A stretch of 7,280 bases of DNA, from IMG/VR virus record IMGVR_UViG_2700989509_000014, one strand, 5' to 3'. Numbering within the stretch: the stretch's first letter is position 1; every line of letters starts with the position of its first letter. A program made the translations under genes and the position numbers. The notes beneath the pieces were generated by a model that had not been told where the DNA came from, did not search any database, and worked only from the letters and a program-made list of their open reading frames with translations. The DNA comes from a virus (lineage: Duplodnaviria; Heunggongvirae; Uroviricota; Caudoviricetes). Positions 1 through 6,891 of this stretch are shown here, piece by piece.

Positions 1-839
1 TTCATGGCTATGTCATGACTGACGGCAAACTCCATGCCGATGATACCCCGGTCCAGGTACTGCTGCCGGGTAATAAGAAGACGAAGACCGGGCGGTTGTG
101 GGCGTATGTTCGTGATGACCGCAATGCCGGGTCAGCGTTGGCACCTGCAGTGTGGTTCGCTTACAGCCCGGACAGGAAAGGCATCCATCCGCAGACTCAT
201 CTTGCCTGCTTCAGCGGTGTGCTGCAAGCGGATGCGTACGCCGGGTTCAACGAGCTGTATCGCAATGGTCGGATAACGGAAGCTGCCTGCTGGGCTCATG
301 CCCGCCGAAAGATCCACGATGTGCACGTCCGCATCCCGTCAGCACTGACGGAAGAAGCCCTGGAGCAGATCGGTCAGTTGTACGCCATAGAGGCGGATAT
401 AAGGGGAATGCCGGCAGAGCAGCGGCTTGCTGAACGTCAGCGAAAAACGAAACCGCTGTTGAAATCCCTGGAAAGCTGGTTGCGTGAAAAGATGAAGACC
501 CTGTCGCGACACTCAGAGTTGGCGAAGGCGTTCGCGTACGCACTTAACCAGTGGCCGGCACTGACGTACTATGCGAACGATGGCTGGGTGGAAATCGACA
601 ACAACATCGCTGAAAATGCCCTGCGGGCGGTCAGTCTGGGTCGTAAAAACTTCCTGTTCTTCGGCTCTGACCATGGTGGTGAGCGGGGAGCGCTACTGTA
701 CAGCCTGATCGGGACGTGCAAACTGAATGACGTGGATCCAGAAAGTTACCTTCGCCATGTGCTTGGCGTCATAGCAGACTGGCCGGTCAACCGGGTCAGC
801 GAACTGCTTCCGTGGCGCATAGCACTGCCAGCTGAATAA
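1..839 (+). CDS. IS66-family transposase (TnpC-type), C-terminal ~279 aa; 5' end truncated by the window edge (reading frame enters at position 3)
   Basis: Open frame from position 3 with no upstream stop inside the window; the ORF-track translation (…[11 protein letters not shown]…[10 protein letters not shown]…[10 protein letters not shown]…) is what I recognise as the conserved C-terminal region of IS66 transposases. The internal ATG at 15 is unlikely to be the true start. Confidence 0.8.
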
Positions 840-2823: not shown

Positions 2824-3531
2824 TTACCAGCTATGTGATGACCAGAATACTCTGCCAATAATCCTTACTGTTTCATGAAACTCATCTCTATCCATTACTT
2901 CATCAGGGTACTCTTCGCGATTTATTGATCTGATTATCACGGATGTAGGTGTGGCTATTAATGTCTTTACTCTTAGTAAATCAGATTGACAAATAGCGTA
3001 GGTTTTACCATCTCTGATGGTGGTGTCTTGCGTGTTGACTCCAACAACATCACCATCGTGAAGGGTTGGCTCCATGCTTTGGCCTATCACCCTAACCAGC
3101 TTGGCAGAGCTTTCAGATACCCCCATCTTTTTCAGATAGTACTTTCTGAAAACCAAAGAGAACTCAGATGATTCCTCTAACTCACAGCTACCACTCCCGG
3201 CGGAAAGAGAAACATTAAGAAGAGGCAATGCGACAAACTCGTCATCGTTTCTTTTTATGTCCTCCCATACCACCGCTTTTAAAGATGACTCACGCACATT
3301 CGATGGCTCTTCATGTGCACCATCCCTCATTTCACCAATACCTGAGCTAAGCCATTCAGGGCGTACTTTTAAAGCATTGGCTAACTCAACCATCTTTCGA
3401 GATCCGTTTGTTTTACCGGATGACATCTTCTGTATGGCTGGCTGAGATATTCCAACCATGTCAGCAAGCTGTGATTGTGACACCCCTGCTGAGCTCATGG
3501 CTGCATTTAGTCTTTCTGCGAATGTTTTCAT
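2824..3531 (-). CDS. cI: Phage CI-like repressor (N-terminal HTH, C-terminal S24/LexA-type autopeptidase), 235 aa from ATG 3531
   Basis: HTH segment SQSQLADMVGISQPAIQKM. Ala-Gly candidate autocleavage site (LSAGSG). Ser nucleophile in GQSMEP and a downstream Lys (LLRVKTL), as in LexA/CI S24 peptidases. Divergent from a cro-like gene across an operator region. The ORF track starts at a TTG (3561), but that extension would overlap operator site 1; the ATG at 3529-3531 (MKTFAERLN…) is the more likely start. Confidence 0.85.
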   Translation of the reverse strand: MKTFAERLNAAMSSAGVSQSQLADMVGISQPAIQKMSSGKTNGSRKMVELANALKVRPEWLSSGIGEMRDGAHEEPSNVRESSLKAVVWEDIKRNDDEFVALPLLNVSLSAGSGSCELEESSEFSLVFRKYYLKKMGVSESSAKLVRVIGQSMEPTLHDGDVVGVNTQDTTIRDGKTYAICQSDLLRVKTLIATPTSVIIRSINREEYPDEVMDRDEFHETVRIIGRVFWSSHSW

Positions 3532-3543
3532 ACCCACAAATCT

Positions 3544-3606
3544 ATAACTACGGTTATCCAAAGTAAAATAACAAAGGTTATTGCTATTTTTTATAACTTG
3601 AGTTAT
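3544..3606. promoter_or_regulatory. Tripartite operator (OR-like): three perfect ATAAC-N4-GTTAT palindromes between the divergent cI and cro genes; overlapping pRM/pR-type promoters inferred
   Basis: Exact sites ATAACtacgGTTAT (3544-3557), ATAACaaagGTTAT (3568-3581) and ATAACttgaGTTAT (3593-3606), spaced 24 and 25 bp start to start, like lambda OR3-OR2-OR1. Candidate rightward promoter TTGCTA (3581-3586), 17-bp spacer, TATCTT (3604-3609), or alternatively a -10 TATAAG at 3614-3619. Candidate leftward -10 is TATAGA on the minus strand (plus 3541-3546). Promoter hexamers are guesses; the palindromes are exact. Confidence 0.65.
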
Positions 3607-3642
3607 CTTTGGTTATAAGTAATGTCCACAAGAGGTATGCTC

Positions 3643-3867
3643 ATGAATTTAGTAATTCAACGAGCCTTGAAAATTGTCGGTAGCCAAAAGCGCCTTGCCG
3701 ACAAGTGTGGTGTAACGCAGCCAGCAGTACATAAATGGCTGAAAGGCGGGTTGGTCTCTCCAGAGAAAGTTACCGCCATCGTTAACGCCACAGGAGGGCA
3801 GATCAAGGCTTACGAAATCCGCCCAGATTTGCCACACCTGTTTCCAAAACCGAATCAGGCAGCATAA
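3643..3867 (+). CDS. cro: Cro-like small HTH regulator (YdaS/Cro family), 74 aa from ATG 3643
   Basis: First rightward gene opposite the repressor. HTH-like segment QKRLADKCGVTQPAVHKWLKG followed by AIVNATGG, which resembles YdaS/Cro-type proteins. AGAGG at 3631-3635 sits 7 nt before ATG 3643; the upstream in-frame ATGs at 3622 and 3637 lack a properly spaced RBS. Stop TAA at 3865-3867. Confidence 0.65.
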   Translation: MNLVIQRALKIVGSQKRLADKCGVTQPAVHKWLKGGLVSPEKVTAIVNATGGQIKAYEIRPDLPHLFPKPNQAA

Positions 3868-3874
3868 GTAACAC

Positions 3875-3909
3875 CGCTCTTTATCAATCTGCACCGCCGA
3901 CAACGCGGT
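3875..3909 (+). promoter_or_regulatory. nutR-like antitermination site: boxA-like CGCTCTTTATCAA followed by a boxB-like hairpin
   Basis: CGCTCTTTA (3875-3883) matches the boxA core (GCTCTTTA / CGCTCTTA). Ten nt downstream is the hairpin ACCGC-cgacaac-GCGGT (3893-3909), a 5-bp stem whose loop contains GACAA, which I recall as the P22-type boxB loop. It lies immediately 3' of cro and 5' of cII, where nutR sits in lambda and P22. Confidence 0.5.
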
Positions 3910-3973
3910 AACTAATTAAGCGCTCATCGAAAGATGGGTATTAGTGATTATTTACCTATGGAAATAGTAAGAA

Positions 3974-4273
3974 ATGGAACAAACAAGTTACAGCAAACTA
4001 TCACAGCGCGACGTTGATCGCGCAGAAACAGATTTACTCATCAACCTGTCAACGCTTACACAGCGCGGTCTGGCAAAGATGATTGGCTGTCATGAATCGA
4101 AGATAAGCAGAACGGACTGGAGATTTATTGCTTCGGTCTTGTGTGCTTTCGGAATGGCATCAGACATCAGTCCGATTAGCAGGGCTTTTAAGTATGCGCT
4201 TGATGGACTCACCAATAAAAAACGCCCGGTGTGCAAGACCGAGCGTTCTGATCAAATACAAATGGAATTTTAA
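3974..4273 (+). CDS. cII: CII-like transcriptional activator (lambda CII homolog), 99 aa
   Basis: C-terminus LTNKKRPVCKTERSDQIQMEF closely matches the lambda CII C-terminus (…ILTNKKRPAATERSEQIQMEF); a central HTH-like segment is present; position after cro/nutR is canonical. Stop TAA at 4271-4273. Confidence 0.8.
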   Translation: MEQTSYSKLSQRDVDRAETDLLINLSTLTQRGLAKMIGCHESKISRTDWRFIASVLCAFGMASDISPISRAFKYALDGLTNKKRPVCKTERSDQIQMEF

Positions 4274-4295
4274 CAACATCCAACGAGGTAATTAT

Positions 4296-4568
4296 ATGCG
4301 AAACAAAGGCTTTAATCCACCTGATACACACAAAGAAGCTAAGCGTTTGCGCTTCCTTCGTTCCATTGATGAAAGAACTCAAATCTCTTTTGTGAAAGTT
4401 GCCAGAACTGAGCTTCTGAAGGCTGAGGCGAGGGCGTTGCTCCCGTCTCTACCAAAAGAGGAGGGATATACGTCCATTCCAAACGCATTTCTGGAAAAGC
4501 TGCTCAAAGAAGACATATCCGTAAGTCAGTTTAACGATGTTCTTAAGGTCTTTCGTCAAGGCAGGTAG
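4296..4568 (+). CDS. Small hypothetical protein (90 aa) between cII and the O-like gene
   Basis: ATG at 4296 preceded by GAGG (4285-4288) with a 7-nt spacer; ends with TAG at 4566-4568, 2 nt before the O-like start. The ORF-track entry 4128-4568 is the same frame extended upstream across cII and is not the real N-terminus. Basic and charged, no recognisable motif. Confidence 0.55.
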   Translation: MRNKGFNPPDTHKEAKRLRFLRSIDERTQISFVKVARTELLKAEARALLPSLPKEEGYTSIPNAFLEKLLKEDISVSQFNDVLKVFRQGR

Positions 4569-4570
4569 TT

Positions 4571-5518
4571 ATGAGCAATACAGCAAAAATCTACGATTTC
4601 AGCGCCGCACACGAGCGCAGGAGCAACAGGATGGAGAACCAGAAAACTGGTTACATTCCGTTGTACCGGAGCATTCTGAAACAGTCATGGGCGAAAGATG
4701 TTTATCTTCGCACCCTGTGGGAAAACCTTCTCCTGAATGCCGCCAGAAAGCCATACAAAGCGAATTTCAAAGGTCATGAATGGCATCTGCAACCCGGTCA
4801 ACTGGTTGTGACAGCAGCTGATTTAGGTCTTCAGTTATGCGACAGGCATGGCAAGCCAGCAAGCCGCGATCAGGTTGAGCGGATGCTTCAGGTTTTTGTG
4901 AAAGAGGGGGTGATCACCATTGATGGAGAGAAGCAAAAAGGTCGTGTGATTACCATCACAAATTACCATGAATATGCTCAAAAAATGGACGATTCACCCG
5001 CACATGAAGCCGCACAAACAACCGCACATGATGCCGCACATGACGAAGCCAGCAATGGCGCGGCTTTCAGAGTACATGCCGCACATGAAAGCGCACATGA
5101 AGCCGCACAAACAACCGCACATCATGAACAAGAAGGTATTAACAAGAATATAAATAATACCCCCCTACCCCCCAATGGGGGAGGCGATGGGCAGGTTAAA
5201 CCTGAACGTCGCAAGGCAGAACGAATCGACTACGAATCCTTCCTGAACGCCTACAACACCGAAGTCGGTGGCAGACTTCCACACGCTGTTGCGGTCAACG
5301 AGAAACGCAAACGCCGCCTGAAGAAAATCATCCCGCAACTGAAAACGCCAAACGTGGACGGTTTCAGAGCGTATGTCAGGGCGTTTGTACATCAGGCCAA
5401 GCCGTTTTACTTCGGAGACAACGACACGGGCTGGACGGCTGATTTTGATTACCTGCTGAGGGAAGACTCGTTAACGGGAGTTCGGGAAGGGAAGTTTGCA
5501 GACAGGGGGATTGCATGA
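4571..5518 (+). CDS. Replication initiation protein, lambda O-like N-terminus with a conserved phage replication-protein C-terminal region, 315 aa; carries the origin iterons internally
   Basis: N-terminus [11 protein letters not shown]… parallels lambda O (MTNTAKILNFG…). A His/Ala-rich linker is encoded by the iteron repeats. Directly followed by, and overlapping by 4 bp with, a DnaB-family helicase gene (P22 gene 18 / gene 12-type arrangement). Confidence 0.75.
4998..5181. repeat. Putative phage origin of replication: iteron array, AT-rich tract and C/G palindrome inside the O-like gene
   Basis: A 31-bp perfect direct repeat cgcacatgaagccgcacaaacaaccgcacat at 4999-5029 and 5092-5122. At least eight copies of the 10-mer (c/g)cgcacat(g/c)a between 4998 and 5123. 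Then an AT-rich stretch (5125-5159, …aacaagaatataaataata…), then C6-TA-C6-AAT-G5 (5160-5181). The organisation mirrors ori-lambda, which also lies inside O. Confidence 0.6.
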
Positions 5519-6891
5519 AACAGGATATCGAAGCGAGCGTTATCGGTGGCCTGCTGATTGGTGGATTAACACCAACTGCCAGTGACGTTCTGGCAACGCT
5601 GGAGCCGGAAGCGTTTTCAATTCCGCTCTACCGGAAAGCCTTCGAGGTTATCCGCAAGCAGGCGCGAAACAGAAACCTAATCGACGCGCTGATGGTTGCC
5701 GAGGCGTGCGGAGAGGAGCATTTCACGTCAATCCTGATGACCAGTAAGAACTGCCCGAGTGCCGCAAACCTGAAGGGATATGCCGGAATGGTCGCGGATA
5801 ACTATCACCGCCGCCTGGTGCTGGAAATCATGGATGAAATGCGTGAACCAATTCAGAGAGGAACCATCGATACATCGAGTCAGGCGATGGACGAGCTTGT
5901 AAAGCGTCTTTCAGCCATCAGAAAGCCCCGTGACGAGGTTAAACCTGTACGGTTAGGGGAAATCATCACTGACTACACTGACACGCTTGACAGGCGCCTG
6001 AGGAACGGAGAAGAGTCAGATACCCTGAAGACCGGAATCGAAGAACTTGATGTCATCACCGGAGGGATGAACGCGGAAGACCTGGTGATTATCGCCGCTC
6101 GTCCTGGTATGGGGAAAACCGAACTGGCGCTGAAGATTGCCGAAGGTGTGGCAAGCCGCGTTATTCCTGGTTCTGACGTCCGGCGCGGGGTATTGATTTT
6201 CTCAATGGAAATGAGCGCATTGCAGATTGCAGAGCGAAGCATTGCCAACGCCGGGAGGATGTCGGTTAGCGTGCTGCGAAATCCTGCATCGATGGATGAC
6301 GAAGGCTGGGCGCGTGTTGCTAACGGCATGAGTCAGCTTGCAGATTTGGATGTATGGGTAGTCGATGCCTCGCGGTTATCGGTCGAAGAAATACGCTCAA
6401 TCGCAGAACGGCACAAACAGGAAAATCCAAACCTGTCACTCATCATGGCGGATTATCTTGGCCTGATTGAGAAGCCGAAAGCAGACCGCAACGACCTCGC
6501 AATTGCTCACATCTCCGGAAGCCTGAAGGCGATGGCGAAAGACCTGAAAACGCCTGTTATCTCCCTGAGTCAGCTTTCGCGCGATGTTGAGAAGCGACCA
6601 AACAAACGCCCGACAAACGCAGATTTGCGTGATTCAGGAAGCATTGAGCAGGACGCAGACTCAATCATCATGCTCTATCGGGAAGCGGTATATGACGAGA
6701 ACAGTAGCGCCGCACCATTTGCTGAAATCATTGTGACAAAAAACCGTTTTGGCTCGCTTGGTACGGTTTACCAGCGGTTCTGCAACGGACACTTTGTTGC
6801 ATGTGACCAGGATGAAGCCAGAAAGATTTGCACAGCATCAAATGCACCCGCTGCACGTGGCAGACGATATGCACAAGGGGCTGACGTATGA
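5515..6891 (+). CDS. Replicative DNA helicase, DnaB family (phage-encoded), 458 aa
   Basis: Walker A in [11 protein letters not shown], Walker B-like [10 protein letters not shown], and DnaB C-terminal motifs ([40 protein letters not shown]). DnaB-like N-terminal domain (…[11 protein letters not shown]…). ATG 5515 overlaps the O-like stop (ATGA). Confidence 0.9.

Follow-up and report, generated by a model that had tools for sequence, protein, structure and literature searches.

The replication origin of lambdoid phages is known to lie inside the gene for their O-type initiator. The lambda O protein binds four ~20-bp repeats within its own gene, and phages P22 and L carry different repeats in gene 18 (PMC8022706). 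In phage L, six imprecise 11-bp repeats (TGTCCAACGGA) were proposed as the origin from sequence alone (PMC8022706). The Shiga-toxin (Stx) phages 933W and P27 have a lambda-type origin with six iterons in the O gene, where the extra iterons lengthen the O linker, and a phage P27 plasmid no longer replicates once its iterons carry silent mutations (PMC7466680). The lambda iterons are 18 bp long with internal dyad symmetry and are spaced 20-24 bp; P22 has units of ~20 bp on GGTAAA/TTTACC, and HK97 has units of the AGCTAA/AGCCAA type. In iteron plasmids with Rep proteins of the pPS10, R6K and RK2 type, direct-repeat sites for a winged-helix initiator lie beside an A+T-rich unwinding element. Plasmid iterons are ~17-22 bp long and lie outside the rep gene, and the Rep proteins have two winged-helix domains.

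We analysed a 7,280-nucleotide stretch of viral DNA (IMG/VR record IMGVR_UViG_2700989509_000014; this whole stretch is the window), part of which had been predicted to be an iteron-based origin. We consider it highly probable (about 85%) from the comparisons below that positions 4998-5181 form a lambdoid prophage replication origin in the linker-coding middle of its own O-like initiator gene (Table 1). The ori-lambda architecture of the original prediction was present. Repeats, an A-rich tract (its A-rich strand is the sense strand, as in lambda) and an inverted repeat follow one another in the lambda order within the linker of a Phage_rep_O protein, between its predicted N-terminal DNA-binding and C-terminal partner-binding domains. 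This kind of origin is already known, and the iterons of the window, being short, non-palindromic and bipartite, depart from it only modestly. No new principle is added, since a two-module O protein with the origin within its gene is textbook.

Table 1. Coordinates of the predicted origin, the initiator gene and the neighbouring helicase gene in the window.
Feature	Position	Strand	Basis or description
O-like replication initiator gene, 315 aa, containing the predicted origin	4571..5518	+	ORF, Pfam, phrog match
N-terminal winged-helix domain, ~residues 31-135, predicted iteron-binding module	4661..4975	+	AlphaFold2 model
Asp100 codon; candidate specificity residue at the start of the predicted recognition helix	4868..4870	+	
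Iteron block 1, four 12-bp units	4998..5045	+	CCGCACATGAAG, CCGCACAAACAA, CCGCACATGATG, CCGCACATGACG
Spacer between the iteron blocks, 33 bp	5046..5078	+	AAGCCAGCAATGGCGCGGCTTTCAGAGTACATG
Iteron block 2, four 12-bp units	5079..5126	+	CCGCACATGAAA, GCGCACATGAAG, CCGCACAAACAA, CCGCACATCATG
A-rich/T-rich tract, predicted DNA-unwinding element	5127..5159	+	33 bp, 18% GC, 20 A vs 7 T
Initiator C-terminal domain of the HK97/P22 gp18 type (residues 187-315), predicted to recruit the helicase	5129..5518	+	Identity to HK97 gp54, P22 gp18
C-rich element, CCCCCC-TA-CCCCCC-AAT-GGGGG	5160..5181	+	Sequence and P22/HK97 homology
Replicative helicase gene of the DnaB family; overlaps the initiator stop codon	5515..6891	+	Pfam DnaB and DnaB_C

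We observed eight copies of an 8-bp core (CCGCACAT/CCGCACAA/GCGCACAT) that recur strictly every 12 bp and are split into two blocks of four by a 33-bp spacer. Every copy was on the + strand, with unit starts at 4998, 5010, 5022 and 5034 in block 1 and at 5079, 5091, 5103 and 5115 in block 2. TRF reported a period of 12 at 4998-5043 and 5079-5122, and the repeat search gave spacings of 12, 12, 57, 12 and 12. The pattern SCGCACAW occurred 8 times against 1.29 expected (0/200 shuffles reached 8), and the two-unit pattern 6 times against 0.01 expected. A 31-bp perfect direct repeat had been predicted here and is exact (4999-5029 equals 5092-5122), with no extension on either side. The accompanying claim of at least six further copies of a 10-mer was right about the repeat family but not about the count: only two further copies exist, and the other six lie inside the 31-bp copies.

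The array differs from that of lambda in having eight 8-bp cores, 12 bp apart in two blocks, without dyad symmetry. The repeat search reported no inverted repeats in 4900-5300, and we did not find here the dyad-symmetric iterons of lambda (18 bp) and P22, each of which takes an O dimer. Because the units have no internal dyad symmetry, they may be bound in another way than by the lambda O dimer. Dyad symmetry of the iterons is a trait of lambda and P22, not of the whole class; the phage L repeats are also short and direct. Phage L resembles the window in carrying such repeats inside the O-like gene of a P22-like phage, and both are predicted origins. Its repeat sequence is unlike that of the window, however, and no bipartite arrangement has been described for L. 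The original prediction of a different iteron sequence was checked against lambda, P22, HK97 and phage L, and the repeats were unlike those of all four, so that a separate replication specificity is the natural reading.

We assessed the initiator gene and its context. The protein matched phrog_345 ('replication initiation O-like') over its full length (4e-98), and residues 20-132 matched Phage_rep_O (Pfam PF04492, E = 2.2e-15, above the gathering score). The gene order in the window is cI-cro-cII-orf-O-helicase, and the Phage_rep_O initiator thus lies in the early right operon after cII. The AlphaFold2 model was of moderate confidence overall (pLDDT 74.5) and reached pLDDT 81-92 over residues 41-130, with a helix at 82-88, a helix at 99-112 and a beta wing at 115-129. 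Foldseek of the N-domain model against the PDB gave winged-helix regulators only (MarR, CodY, RosR), and these matches were weak and non-significant (E ≥ 0.013). The full protein had no match among PDB sequences, even at E = 10. The likeness to iteron plasmids is by analogy only, as the initiator has neither a sequence match nor a significant structural match in these PDB searches.

The two halves of the initiator have different affinities. BLAST gave no similarity between this N-domain and its counterparts in lambda O, P22 gp18 and HK97 gp54; in the lambda O comparison, similarity ended after the first ~10 residues. The C-domain was 94.6% identical to the C-terminus of HK97 gp54 and 57% identical to P22 gp18, and the helicase was 90% identical to P22 gp12 across all 458 aa. 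The C-domain is of the type found in the P22 gene 18/gene 12 and HK97 gp54/gp55 systems, and the partner is a P22 gp12-type helicase, whereas that of lambda O is the helicase loader P. When we compared the window with a P22-type replication module, the gp18-type C-domain and the immediately downstream DnaB-family helicase were present, and the P22-type N-domain and ~20-bp GGTAAA-based iterons were absent from the window. Judged by these comparisons, the window is outside the P22 specificity type, its N-domain and iterons both being unrelated to those of P22. The N-domain and iterons are likewise unrelated to those of HK97 while the C-terminal module is shared, and the window therefore appears to be a hybrid in which an HK97/P22-type helicase-recruiting module carries a specificity module of another kind. 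In relatives, the same N-domain and iterons were fused to lambda-O-type C-termini with a lambda-type palindrome, followed by lambda-P-family genes.

We compared the window with ~200 related loci. The survey of the architecture drew on one genome per species and covered 57 loci; these came from Xenorhabdus, Yersinia, Enterobacter, Citrobacter, Brenneria, Sodalis, Proteus, Morganella, Pantoea and other genera, and 53 of them could be parsed. Three plus three or four plus four units with a 12-bp period, a 33-bp spacer and then CATCATGAACAAGAAGGTAATAACAA... were found in 46/53, the spacer being 33 bp in all 46. Block layout, spacer length and A-rich tract were all kept across enterobacterial genera. 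Two distant N-domains (L062 and L063, 40-45% identity) were accompanied by different units (AGGTAACAAA / GTGACAAA) encoding the peptide EVTN, in the same 3+3, 12-bp layout with a spacer. The first 21 nt of the spacer were recognisable across genera, and also in L062 despite its different iterons. An AAGCC/GGCTT inverted repeat in the spacer had mixed pair counts, and the spacer folded as single-stranded DNA was no lower in energy than dinucleotide shuffles. The last unit of block 2 together with its junction (CCGCRCATCATGAACAAGAAGG) was the most conserved stretch of the family. Over the origin segment, L064 and two other IMG/VR contigs were identical.

The predicted AT-rich tract after the repeats was found and is strand-asymmetric. 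None of its 33 sites varied in 63 close haplotypes, in which variation at neighbouring coding third positions is 18-33%. Across genera, its first ~25 nt were ~90% or more conserved irrespective of the type of C-terminal module. The tract enters the C-rich element, which reads as described in the original prediction: CCCCCC (5160-5165), TA, CCCCCC (5168-5173), AAT and GGGGG (5177-5181). The second C run and the G run form an inverted repeat around AAT, and a direct repeat of TACCCCCC (two copies, 5158-5173) begins 2 nt upstream of the element. The element is homologous to ...CCCCCTTACCCCCTAAAGGGGG, a C5-TTA-C5-NNN-G5 sequence that the A-rich tract also enters in P22 and with which the annotated P22 rep_origin (32840-32984) ends; the HK97 counterpart is homologous as well. 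The element belongs with the HK97/P22-type C-terminal module, not with the iteron module.

It is conceivable, but rather unlikely, that the origin consists of the iterons and the A-rich tract only, and that the C-rich element is conserved coding sequence at the start of the HK97/P22-type C-domain or a recombination junction. The element does encode a conserved Pro/Gly peptide (PLPPNGG) that looks hinge-like, and it travels with the C-terminal module rather than with the iterons. Its hairpin, folded as single-stranded DNA, had an energy no better than that of dinucleotide shuffles (z = 0.03 and -0.36), so that the case for the inverted repeat is purely comparative. That comparison nevertheless counts against this reading. 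Each other type of C-terminal module has its own, different inverted repeat right of the A-rich tract, such that five unrelated sequences make an inverted repeat at the same position, and the inverted-repeat score over the 53 loci averaged 6.74 versus 4.3 in shuffles and other coding windows. In the lambda-type module the arms change in compensation (GAGAATTC/GAATCCTC, CGGAATTC/GAATCCCG, GACATTC/GAATGTC, GATGATTC/GAATCACC), and in L063 the peptide is altered to PLTPQEG while the palindrome stays (CCCCTCAAGAGGGG). The P22 annotators, moreover, placed the element inside the rep_origin. To our knowledge, even the lambda palindrome has no settled role.

The array could also be a genuine initiator binding site that serves mainly for control (titration, autoregulation or superinfection exclusion), with initiation at another site. 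We regard this as very unlikely. Ectopic lambda iterons do inhibit repLambda phages and not repP22 phages (PMC3349717), and of the six iterons of Stx phages only four are strongly bound (PMC7466680). Some prophage alleles would, in addition, yield a protein consisting of the N-domain only. Against this, the array was always joined directly to the conserved A-rich tract and inverted repeat, the arrangement of an origin that unwinds. We found no second core cluster in ~280 kb of sequence flanking the related loci, where ~10 genuine isolated exact cores remained outside the origin once parsing artefacts were removed (8.5 expected), and no alternative repeat array elsewhere in the window.

The preferred reading, a replication origin, would tie the iterons to the N-domain encoded beside them. 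Core position 5 is a synonymous GCA/GCG site at which A or G is uniform within each locus: the A type comprised 24 loci (A in 99% of their units) and the G type 29 loci (G in 98%). We observed Asp100 in 24/24 loci with CCGCACAT cores and His100 in 29/29 loci with CCGCGCAT cores. A replication set of 69 further viral contigs, chosen by the CCGCGCAT DNA pattern alone, had His100 in 69/69. Residue 82 (codon 4814-4816) was split in the same way as residue 100, with Ala/Pro versus Ser/Thr/Leu. The Asp and His types were interleaved in a tree built without those columns; the tree is a neighbour-joining one on short sequences, and the covariation could partly reflect shared ancestry. How O-type initiators recognise their iterons can be tested directly through the pairing of Asp100/His100 with A/G at core position 5.

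The repeats are translated in the O-like frame as a His/Ala-rich linker, as predicted, and the stretch is read as residues 143-186; all eight units lie between the N-domain (to ~residue 135) and the C-domain (from ~residue 187). At four-fold third positions of the N-domain, identity between loci was 43%. Each core contains three third positions; these were 100%, 97-99% (within a type) and ~80% identical, and the pattern of conservation was that of a contiguous 8-bp block, not codon-like. The encoded peptide varied among relatives (AHE/AHN/ALK/EHN, with EVTN at loci that have another iteron), and codons between the cores were hypervariable. A dual constraint, as protein and as binding site, had been proposed for this segment; the DNA half holds for the cores, but the encoded peptide varies freely and is not constrained. 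The protein side seems to need little beyond an open frame and a flexible linker. Among the 63 close haplotypes, core variability was 25% versus 18% at N-domain third positions and thus not markedly lower, which suggests that individual units are under weak selection. Weak selection per unit fits redundancy, yet it weakens the argument for DNA constraint at shallow depth.

The weakest alternative, in which the repeats are a slippage-expanded, low-complexity His/Ala-rich peptide linker with no DNA role and the origin lies elsewhere, can point to a translated segment with a unit of exactly four codons, to copy number that shifts by whole units (3+3 vs 4+4) and to a peptide as poorly conserved as low-complexity sequence would be, but it is scarcely credible given that the 8-bp block is conserved at its third positions (80-100% vs 43% background), that the cores persist while the peptide changes freely, that synonymous position 5 is uniform per locus and follows residue 100, that the adjoining A-rich tract is invariant, and that position and order agree with the known lambda and P22 origins.

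We infer the following mechanism for an origin of this anatomy. The N-terminal winged-helix domain would bind the eight direct-repeat sites (CCGCACAT core, 12-bp period, two blocks of four), and the resulting nucleoprotein complex would destabilise the adjoining 33-bp A-rich tract. The HK97/P22 gp18-type C-domain would then recruit the phage's DnaB-type helicase from the next gene, as in P22 gene 18/gene 12, giving origin activity. The protein reading of the repeats would be incidental and yield a His/Ala-rich flexible linker. Iteron core and N-domain would make up one exchangeable specificity module, and the C-rich inverted repeat, the C-domain and the helicase a second, with a junction in or just after the A-rich tract. 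Exchange between such modules is observed among the related loci.

A further reading, which we hold only tentatively and at less than even odds, is that these loci represent a distinct class of O-type origin. One winged-helix domain would bind each short, non-palindromic core of the 12-bp-period array, as a monomer or head to tail and not as a dimer, and the blocks would be set around the fixed 33-bp spacer, whose DNA is itself conserved and might be recognised by another factor. In nature, a single recognition-helix residue would re-set the specificity (Asp100/CCGCACAT, His100/CCGCGCAT and, in distant members, Lys/AGGTAACA). If true, this would amount to a simple natural recognition code, with enterobacterial prophages, Stx2a phages among them, falling into several groups by replication specificity.

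Other signals in and around the array were assessed. An Rfam scan of the whole window gave no family at gathering score, and a promoter scan of 3500-5600 gave no promoter-like site. Two terminator-like calls within the iterons, from a scan of 3500-5600, were rejected as weak 5-bp stems at shuffle level, and the C-rich hairpin was rejected as a terminator because no T run follows it. The A6 run before the iterons is out of phase for a tandem-slippage heptamer, which argues against programmed frameshifting, and is too short for efficient transcriptional slippage. A one-mismatch near-copy of the core at 4605 (CCGCACACGA) was rejected as an autoregulatory site, being unconserved in relatives and at chance level.

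Replication specificity governs complementation, exclusion and recombination among lambdoid phages and prophages; in Stx phages, the toxin gene dosage reached after induction also depends on replication. The present iteron type is so far uncharacterised and is common to many enterobacterial prophages, including Stx2a phages. A literal search for the iteron sequence across 8 million papers gave coincidental primer matches only and no text describing these iterons, and the Hf4s preprint does not discuss the origin. The origin type is common, yet it is annotated only as 'replication protein'. Relatives of the N-domain number >596 in IMG/VR. Like 933W and P27, the Stx2a phages that share the window's origin are Shiga-toxin phages whose O gene holds the origin; 933W and P27 have lambda-type iterons, O and P, whereas these Stx2a phages (LC616031 and others) are of a different specificity type. 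We found the origin type in 48 Stx2a-converting phage records. LC616031 and others of these Stx2a phages were 98.6% identical, and the viable phages Hf4s, JEP4 and many Stx2a phages carry the origin at 97-98% identity, with 97% for the segment in Hf4s and JEP4.

The window spans the part of a lambdoid prophage that serves immunity and replication, and the putative origin (4998-5181) encodes residues 143-204 of the O-like initiator. The 31-bp perfect direct repeat of the original prediction was exact (4999-5029 and 5092-5122), and we observed a finer structure under it: eight 12-bp units in two blocks of four, with 33 bp between the blocks. Each unit is an 8-bp core plus four variable bases; the cores read CCGCACAT five times, CCGCACAA twice and GCGCACAT once. 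The core pattern occurred 8 times (1.29 expected) and the two-unit pattern 6 times (0.01 expected), values reached by no shuffle. The prediction had added at least six further copies of a 10-mer to the 31-bp repeat, which is too many, as six of the eight units already lie within its two copies. The AT-rich tract it placed after the repeats (33 bp, 18% GC; 20 A and 7 T on the sense strand) and the C6-TA-C6-AAT-G5 element were both found.

Features of the window, including the parts of the origin segment
Feature	Coordinates	Strand	Remark
IS66 transposase fragment	15-839		
Two genes of unknown function	1205-2709	minus	
cI	2824-3561	minus	
cro	3622-3867		
cII	3974-4273		
Small ORF	4293-4568		
O-like initiator	4571-5518	plus	origin segment in middle of gene
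Units, block 1	starts 4998, 5010, 5022, 5034		
Spacer	5046-5078		
Units, block 2	starts 5079, 5091, 5103, 5115		
A-rich tract	5127-5159		
C-rich element	5160-5181		
DnaB-family helicase	5515-6891		458 aa
89-aa ORF			last in window, after helicase

A profile search with the predicted winged-helix N-terminal domain (N-domain) of the initiator, using one genome per species, gave 57 loci from Xenorhabdus, Yersinia, Enterobacter, Citrobacter, Brenneria, Sodalis, Proteus, Morganella, Pantoea, Atlantibacter and other genera. Parsing succeeded for 53 of these loci, of which 26 had 3+3 units and 20 had 4+4; the remainder were mostly mis-parsed because their units are degenerate. The 12-bp period and the 33-bp spacer were invariant across parsed loci, and the sequence after the units was the same throughout the family (CATCATGAACAAGAAGGTAATAACAA.AATA...).

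Between family loci the N-domain was 73% identical as protein, and its four-fold degenerate third positions were only 43% identical. Third positions within the cores (unit positions 2, 5 and 8) were 100%, 97-99% (within a core type) and ~80% identical, and identity fell to 29-55% at unit positions 9-12, a stretch with one complete codon in it. Conservation thus runs through 8 contiguous bp irrespective of codon phase. The peptide encoded there varies (AHE, AHN, AQT, ALK, EHN; EVTN in two distant members), and these data show that the repeats are conserved as DNA and not as protein.

We also assessed shallow variation in at least 80 IMG/VR contigs with an N-domain at least 97% identical to that of the window (>596 relatives in all). 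The 4+4 units and the C-rich element were kept in every readable contig. Across 63 distinct full-length haplotypes, variable sites made up 8% of the N-domain, 19% of the cores, 53% of the inter-core bases and 52% of the spacer. The A-rich tract had 0 of 33, which argues for strong constraint on it as DNA. Occasional changes in single cores are tolerated, as expected with eight redundant sites; this agrees with the in vitro result for lambda, as cited in PMC7466680, that the two iterons adjoining the A-rich tract suffice.

The cores fell into two versions, CCGCACAT in 24 loci and CCGCGCAT in 29. Position 5 was A in 99% of 149 units of the former loci and G in 98% of 180 units of the latter. This is a synonymous change of an Ala codon (GCA/GCG), yet it is uniform in each origin. 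The division by core type recurred, with no exception, in two N-domain columns: residue 100 (Asp with CCGCACAT, His with CCGCGCAT) and residue 82 (Ala/Pro with CCGCACAT, Ser/Thr/Leu with CCGCGCAT). The core types were interleaved in a neighbour-joining tree built without these columns, although the alignment is short and the tree not robust. As an independent check, we picked 120 viral contigs by the DNA pattern CCGCGCAT-N4-CCGCGCAT alone; the N-domain lay directly upstream in 69, and all 69 had His100 and Ser/Thr82. Two loci with distant N-domains (L062 and L063, 40-45% identity) carried Lys at the position corresponding to residue 100 and had different units (AGGTAACAAA / GTGACAAA), with the 3+3, 12-bp layout and spacer retained.

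The AlphaFold2 model of the N-domain (mean pLDDT 74.5; 81-92 over residues 41-130) showed a winged-helix layout with helices at 82-88 and 99-112 and a beta wing at 115-129. On this layout, residue 100 would lie where the predicted recognition helix begins, and residue 82 where the helix before it does. Foldseek returned weak matches only, all to winged-helix regulators. The covariation is the pattern expected if the cores are read by the N-domain. Because it can be put directly to the test, the pairing of Asp100/His100 with A/G is the analysis's most useful by-product.

Many Stx2a-converting phages carry an initiator gene 98.6% identical to the one in the window, and the origin segment was 96.7-98.3% identical to its counterparts in TL-2011a, JEP4 and Hf4s, the latter two being isolated, plaque-forming phages. 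In TL-2011a (L001), the near-identical O gene is followed at 5556-7949 by a gene for a 797-aa DnaB-family helicase with an inserted LAGLIDADG homing-endonuclease domain, intein-like in appearance; the window helicase lacks the insertion. Klebsiella and Yersinia phages had only the N-domain, iterons and A-rich part in common with the window (73-85% DNA identity), and HK97, P22-like and other phages only the C-rich element onwards. The C-terminal 129 residues were 94.6% identical to HK97 gp54 and 57% to P22 gp18, and the helicase 90% to P22 gp12. BLAST detected no similarity between the N-domain and its counterparts in lambda O, P22 gp18 or HK97 gp54. The first ~10 residues of the initiator (4571-4600) resemble the lambda O N-terminus, MTNTAKILNF. 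This module-wise sharing makes the gene a mosaic, with an N-domain and iteron module joined to an HK97/P22-type, helicase-associated module.

Past ~25-30 bp of the A-rich tract, the family loci split into several unrelated C-terminal modules. The majority were lambda-O-like and followed by a lambda-P-family gene; the window and L018 had a gp18-type domain with a DnaB-type helicase. Such an arrangement follows the two-domain logic classically known from lambda O; here the modules cross over within the A-rich tract or immediately behind it.

In the P22 record, the final G of ...ATACCCCCTTACCCCCTAAAGGGGG is the last base of the annotated rep_origin (32840-32984), and HK97 has ...CCCCCTTACCCCCTAACGGGGG at the corresponding place; the C-rich element of the window is their homologue. 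It encodes PLPPNGG, and its hairpin, taken singly, folded no better than shuffles. An inverted repeat was found at the corresponding position in every C-terminal module type. Lambda-type arms showed compensatory variation (GAGAATTC/GAATCCTC, CGGAATTC/GAATCCCG, GACATTC/GAATGTC, GATGATTC/GAATCACC) and reached 14 bp in L033. Other arms were ATCTAATAAT/ATTATTAGAT in Xenorhabdus prophages, ATTAAATAC/GTATTTAAT in another group, GTCATC/GATGAC in L018, and C5/G5 or CCCCTC/GAGGGG in gp18-type modules. The mean best score was 6.74, compared to 4.32 for shuffles and 4.22 for other coding windows of the same loci. The three-part layout of repeats, A-rich tract and inverted repeat is thus a property of the whole family. 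Two IMG/VR contigs (L069 and L071), otherwise near-identical, have C5 for C6 at the equivalent of 5160-5165, which would shift the initiator frame; either the homopolymer was misread in sequencing or the prophage is inactivated.

It is textbook knowledge that the origin can lie within the O gene, that N-domain and iterons carry the specificity, and that C-terminal modules can be exchanged. The architectural peculiarities here are modest: 8-bp non-palindromic cores, a 12-bp period and a division into two blocks by a spacer of fixed length. Since the units have no dyad symmetry and are phased at 12 bp, their binding geometry may, speculatively, be unlike that of a lambda O dimer on an 18-bp iteron. 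A literal literature search for the iteron sequence found no text on this iteron type, and database annotation of the gene goes no further than "replication protein" or "replication protein O". Short direct repeats were noted before in phage L gene 18 (PMC8022706). The best-supported reading is initiation of the lambda/P22 type: the N-domain would bind the eight cores, the A-rich tract would open, and the gp18/gp54-type C-domain would then recruit the phage's own DnaB-type helicase. We infer these three steps from homology and from the lambda, P22 and Stx phage literature (PMC8022706, PMC7466680, PMC3349717).

The spacer was 33 bp long in the window and its L007-L063 counterparts. Its first 21 bases (AAGCCAGYAATGGCGCGGCTT) were kept across genera, even beside different iterons, with third positions 60-90% identical, and its 3' half was hypervariable among close haplotypes. 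Pair counts for a possible AAGCC/GGCTT pairing were mixed. Another factor might use the spacer as its site, or the spacer might encode a conserved peptide, (E/K)(A/P)SN(G/D)AA.

An alternative frame through the iterons (4968-5153) appears in three proteins from the databases (P0017, P0039 and P0044), ..AQKWTIYPHIKPH...MNKKVITRI, with a stop in the A-rich tract, as would result from an A run (A6, 4980-4985) one base shorter. Such alleles, whether real prophage alleles or homopolymer errors, would give an N-domain-only protein. Many initiator entries (P0001-P0012 and others) are "partial", 150-210 aa, and their ends fall among the iterons or shortly beyond them. The junction with the C-terminal module seems to be a break point in assemblies, a likely reason being that several prophages in one genome share this module.

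The two minus-strand genes between the IS66 transposase fragment and cI occupy the place of rexAB in lambda. One product (309 aa, phrog_18731) had no Pfam match; the other, a 192-aa DUF6932 protein, matched the PADLOC candidate defence family PDC-M63A (E 2e-10). They may form a prophage-borne defence cassette. Within the 3' end of cII, where lambda and P22 have the oop terminator, the minus strand carries a strong terminator-like hairpin at 4249-4219 (12 pairs, then a T run).
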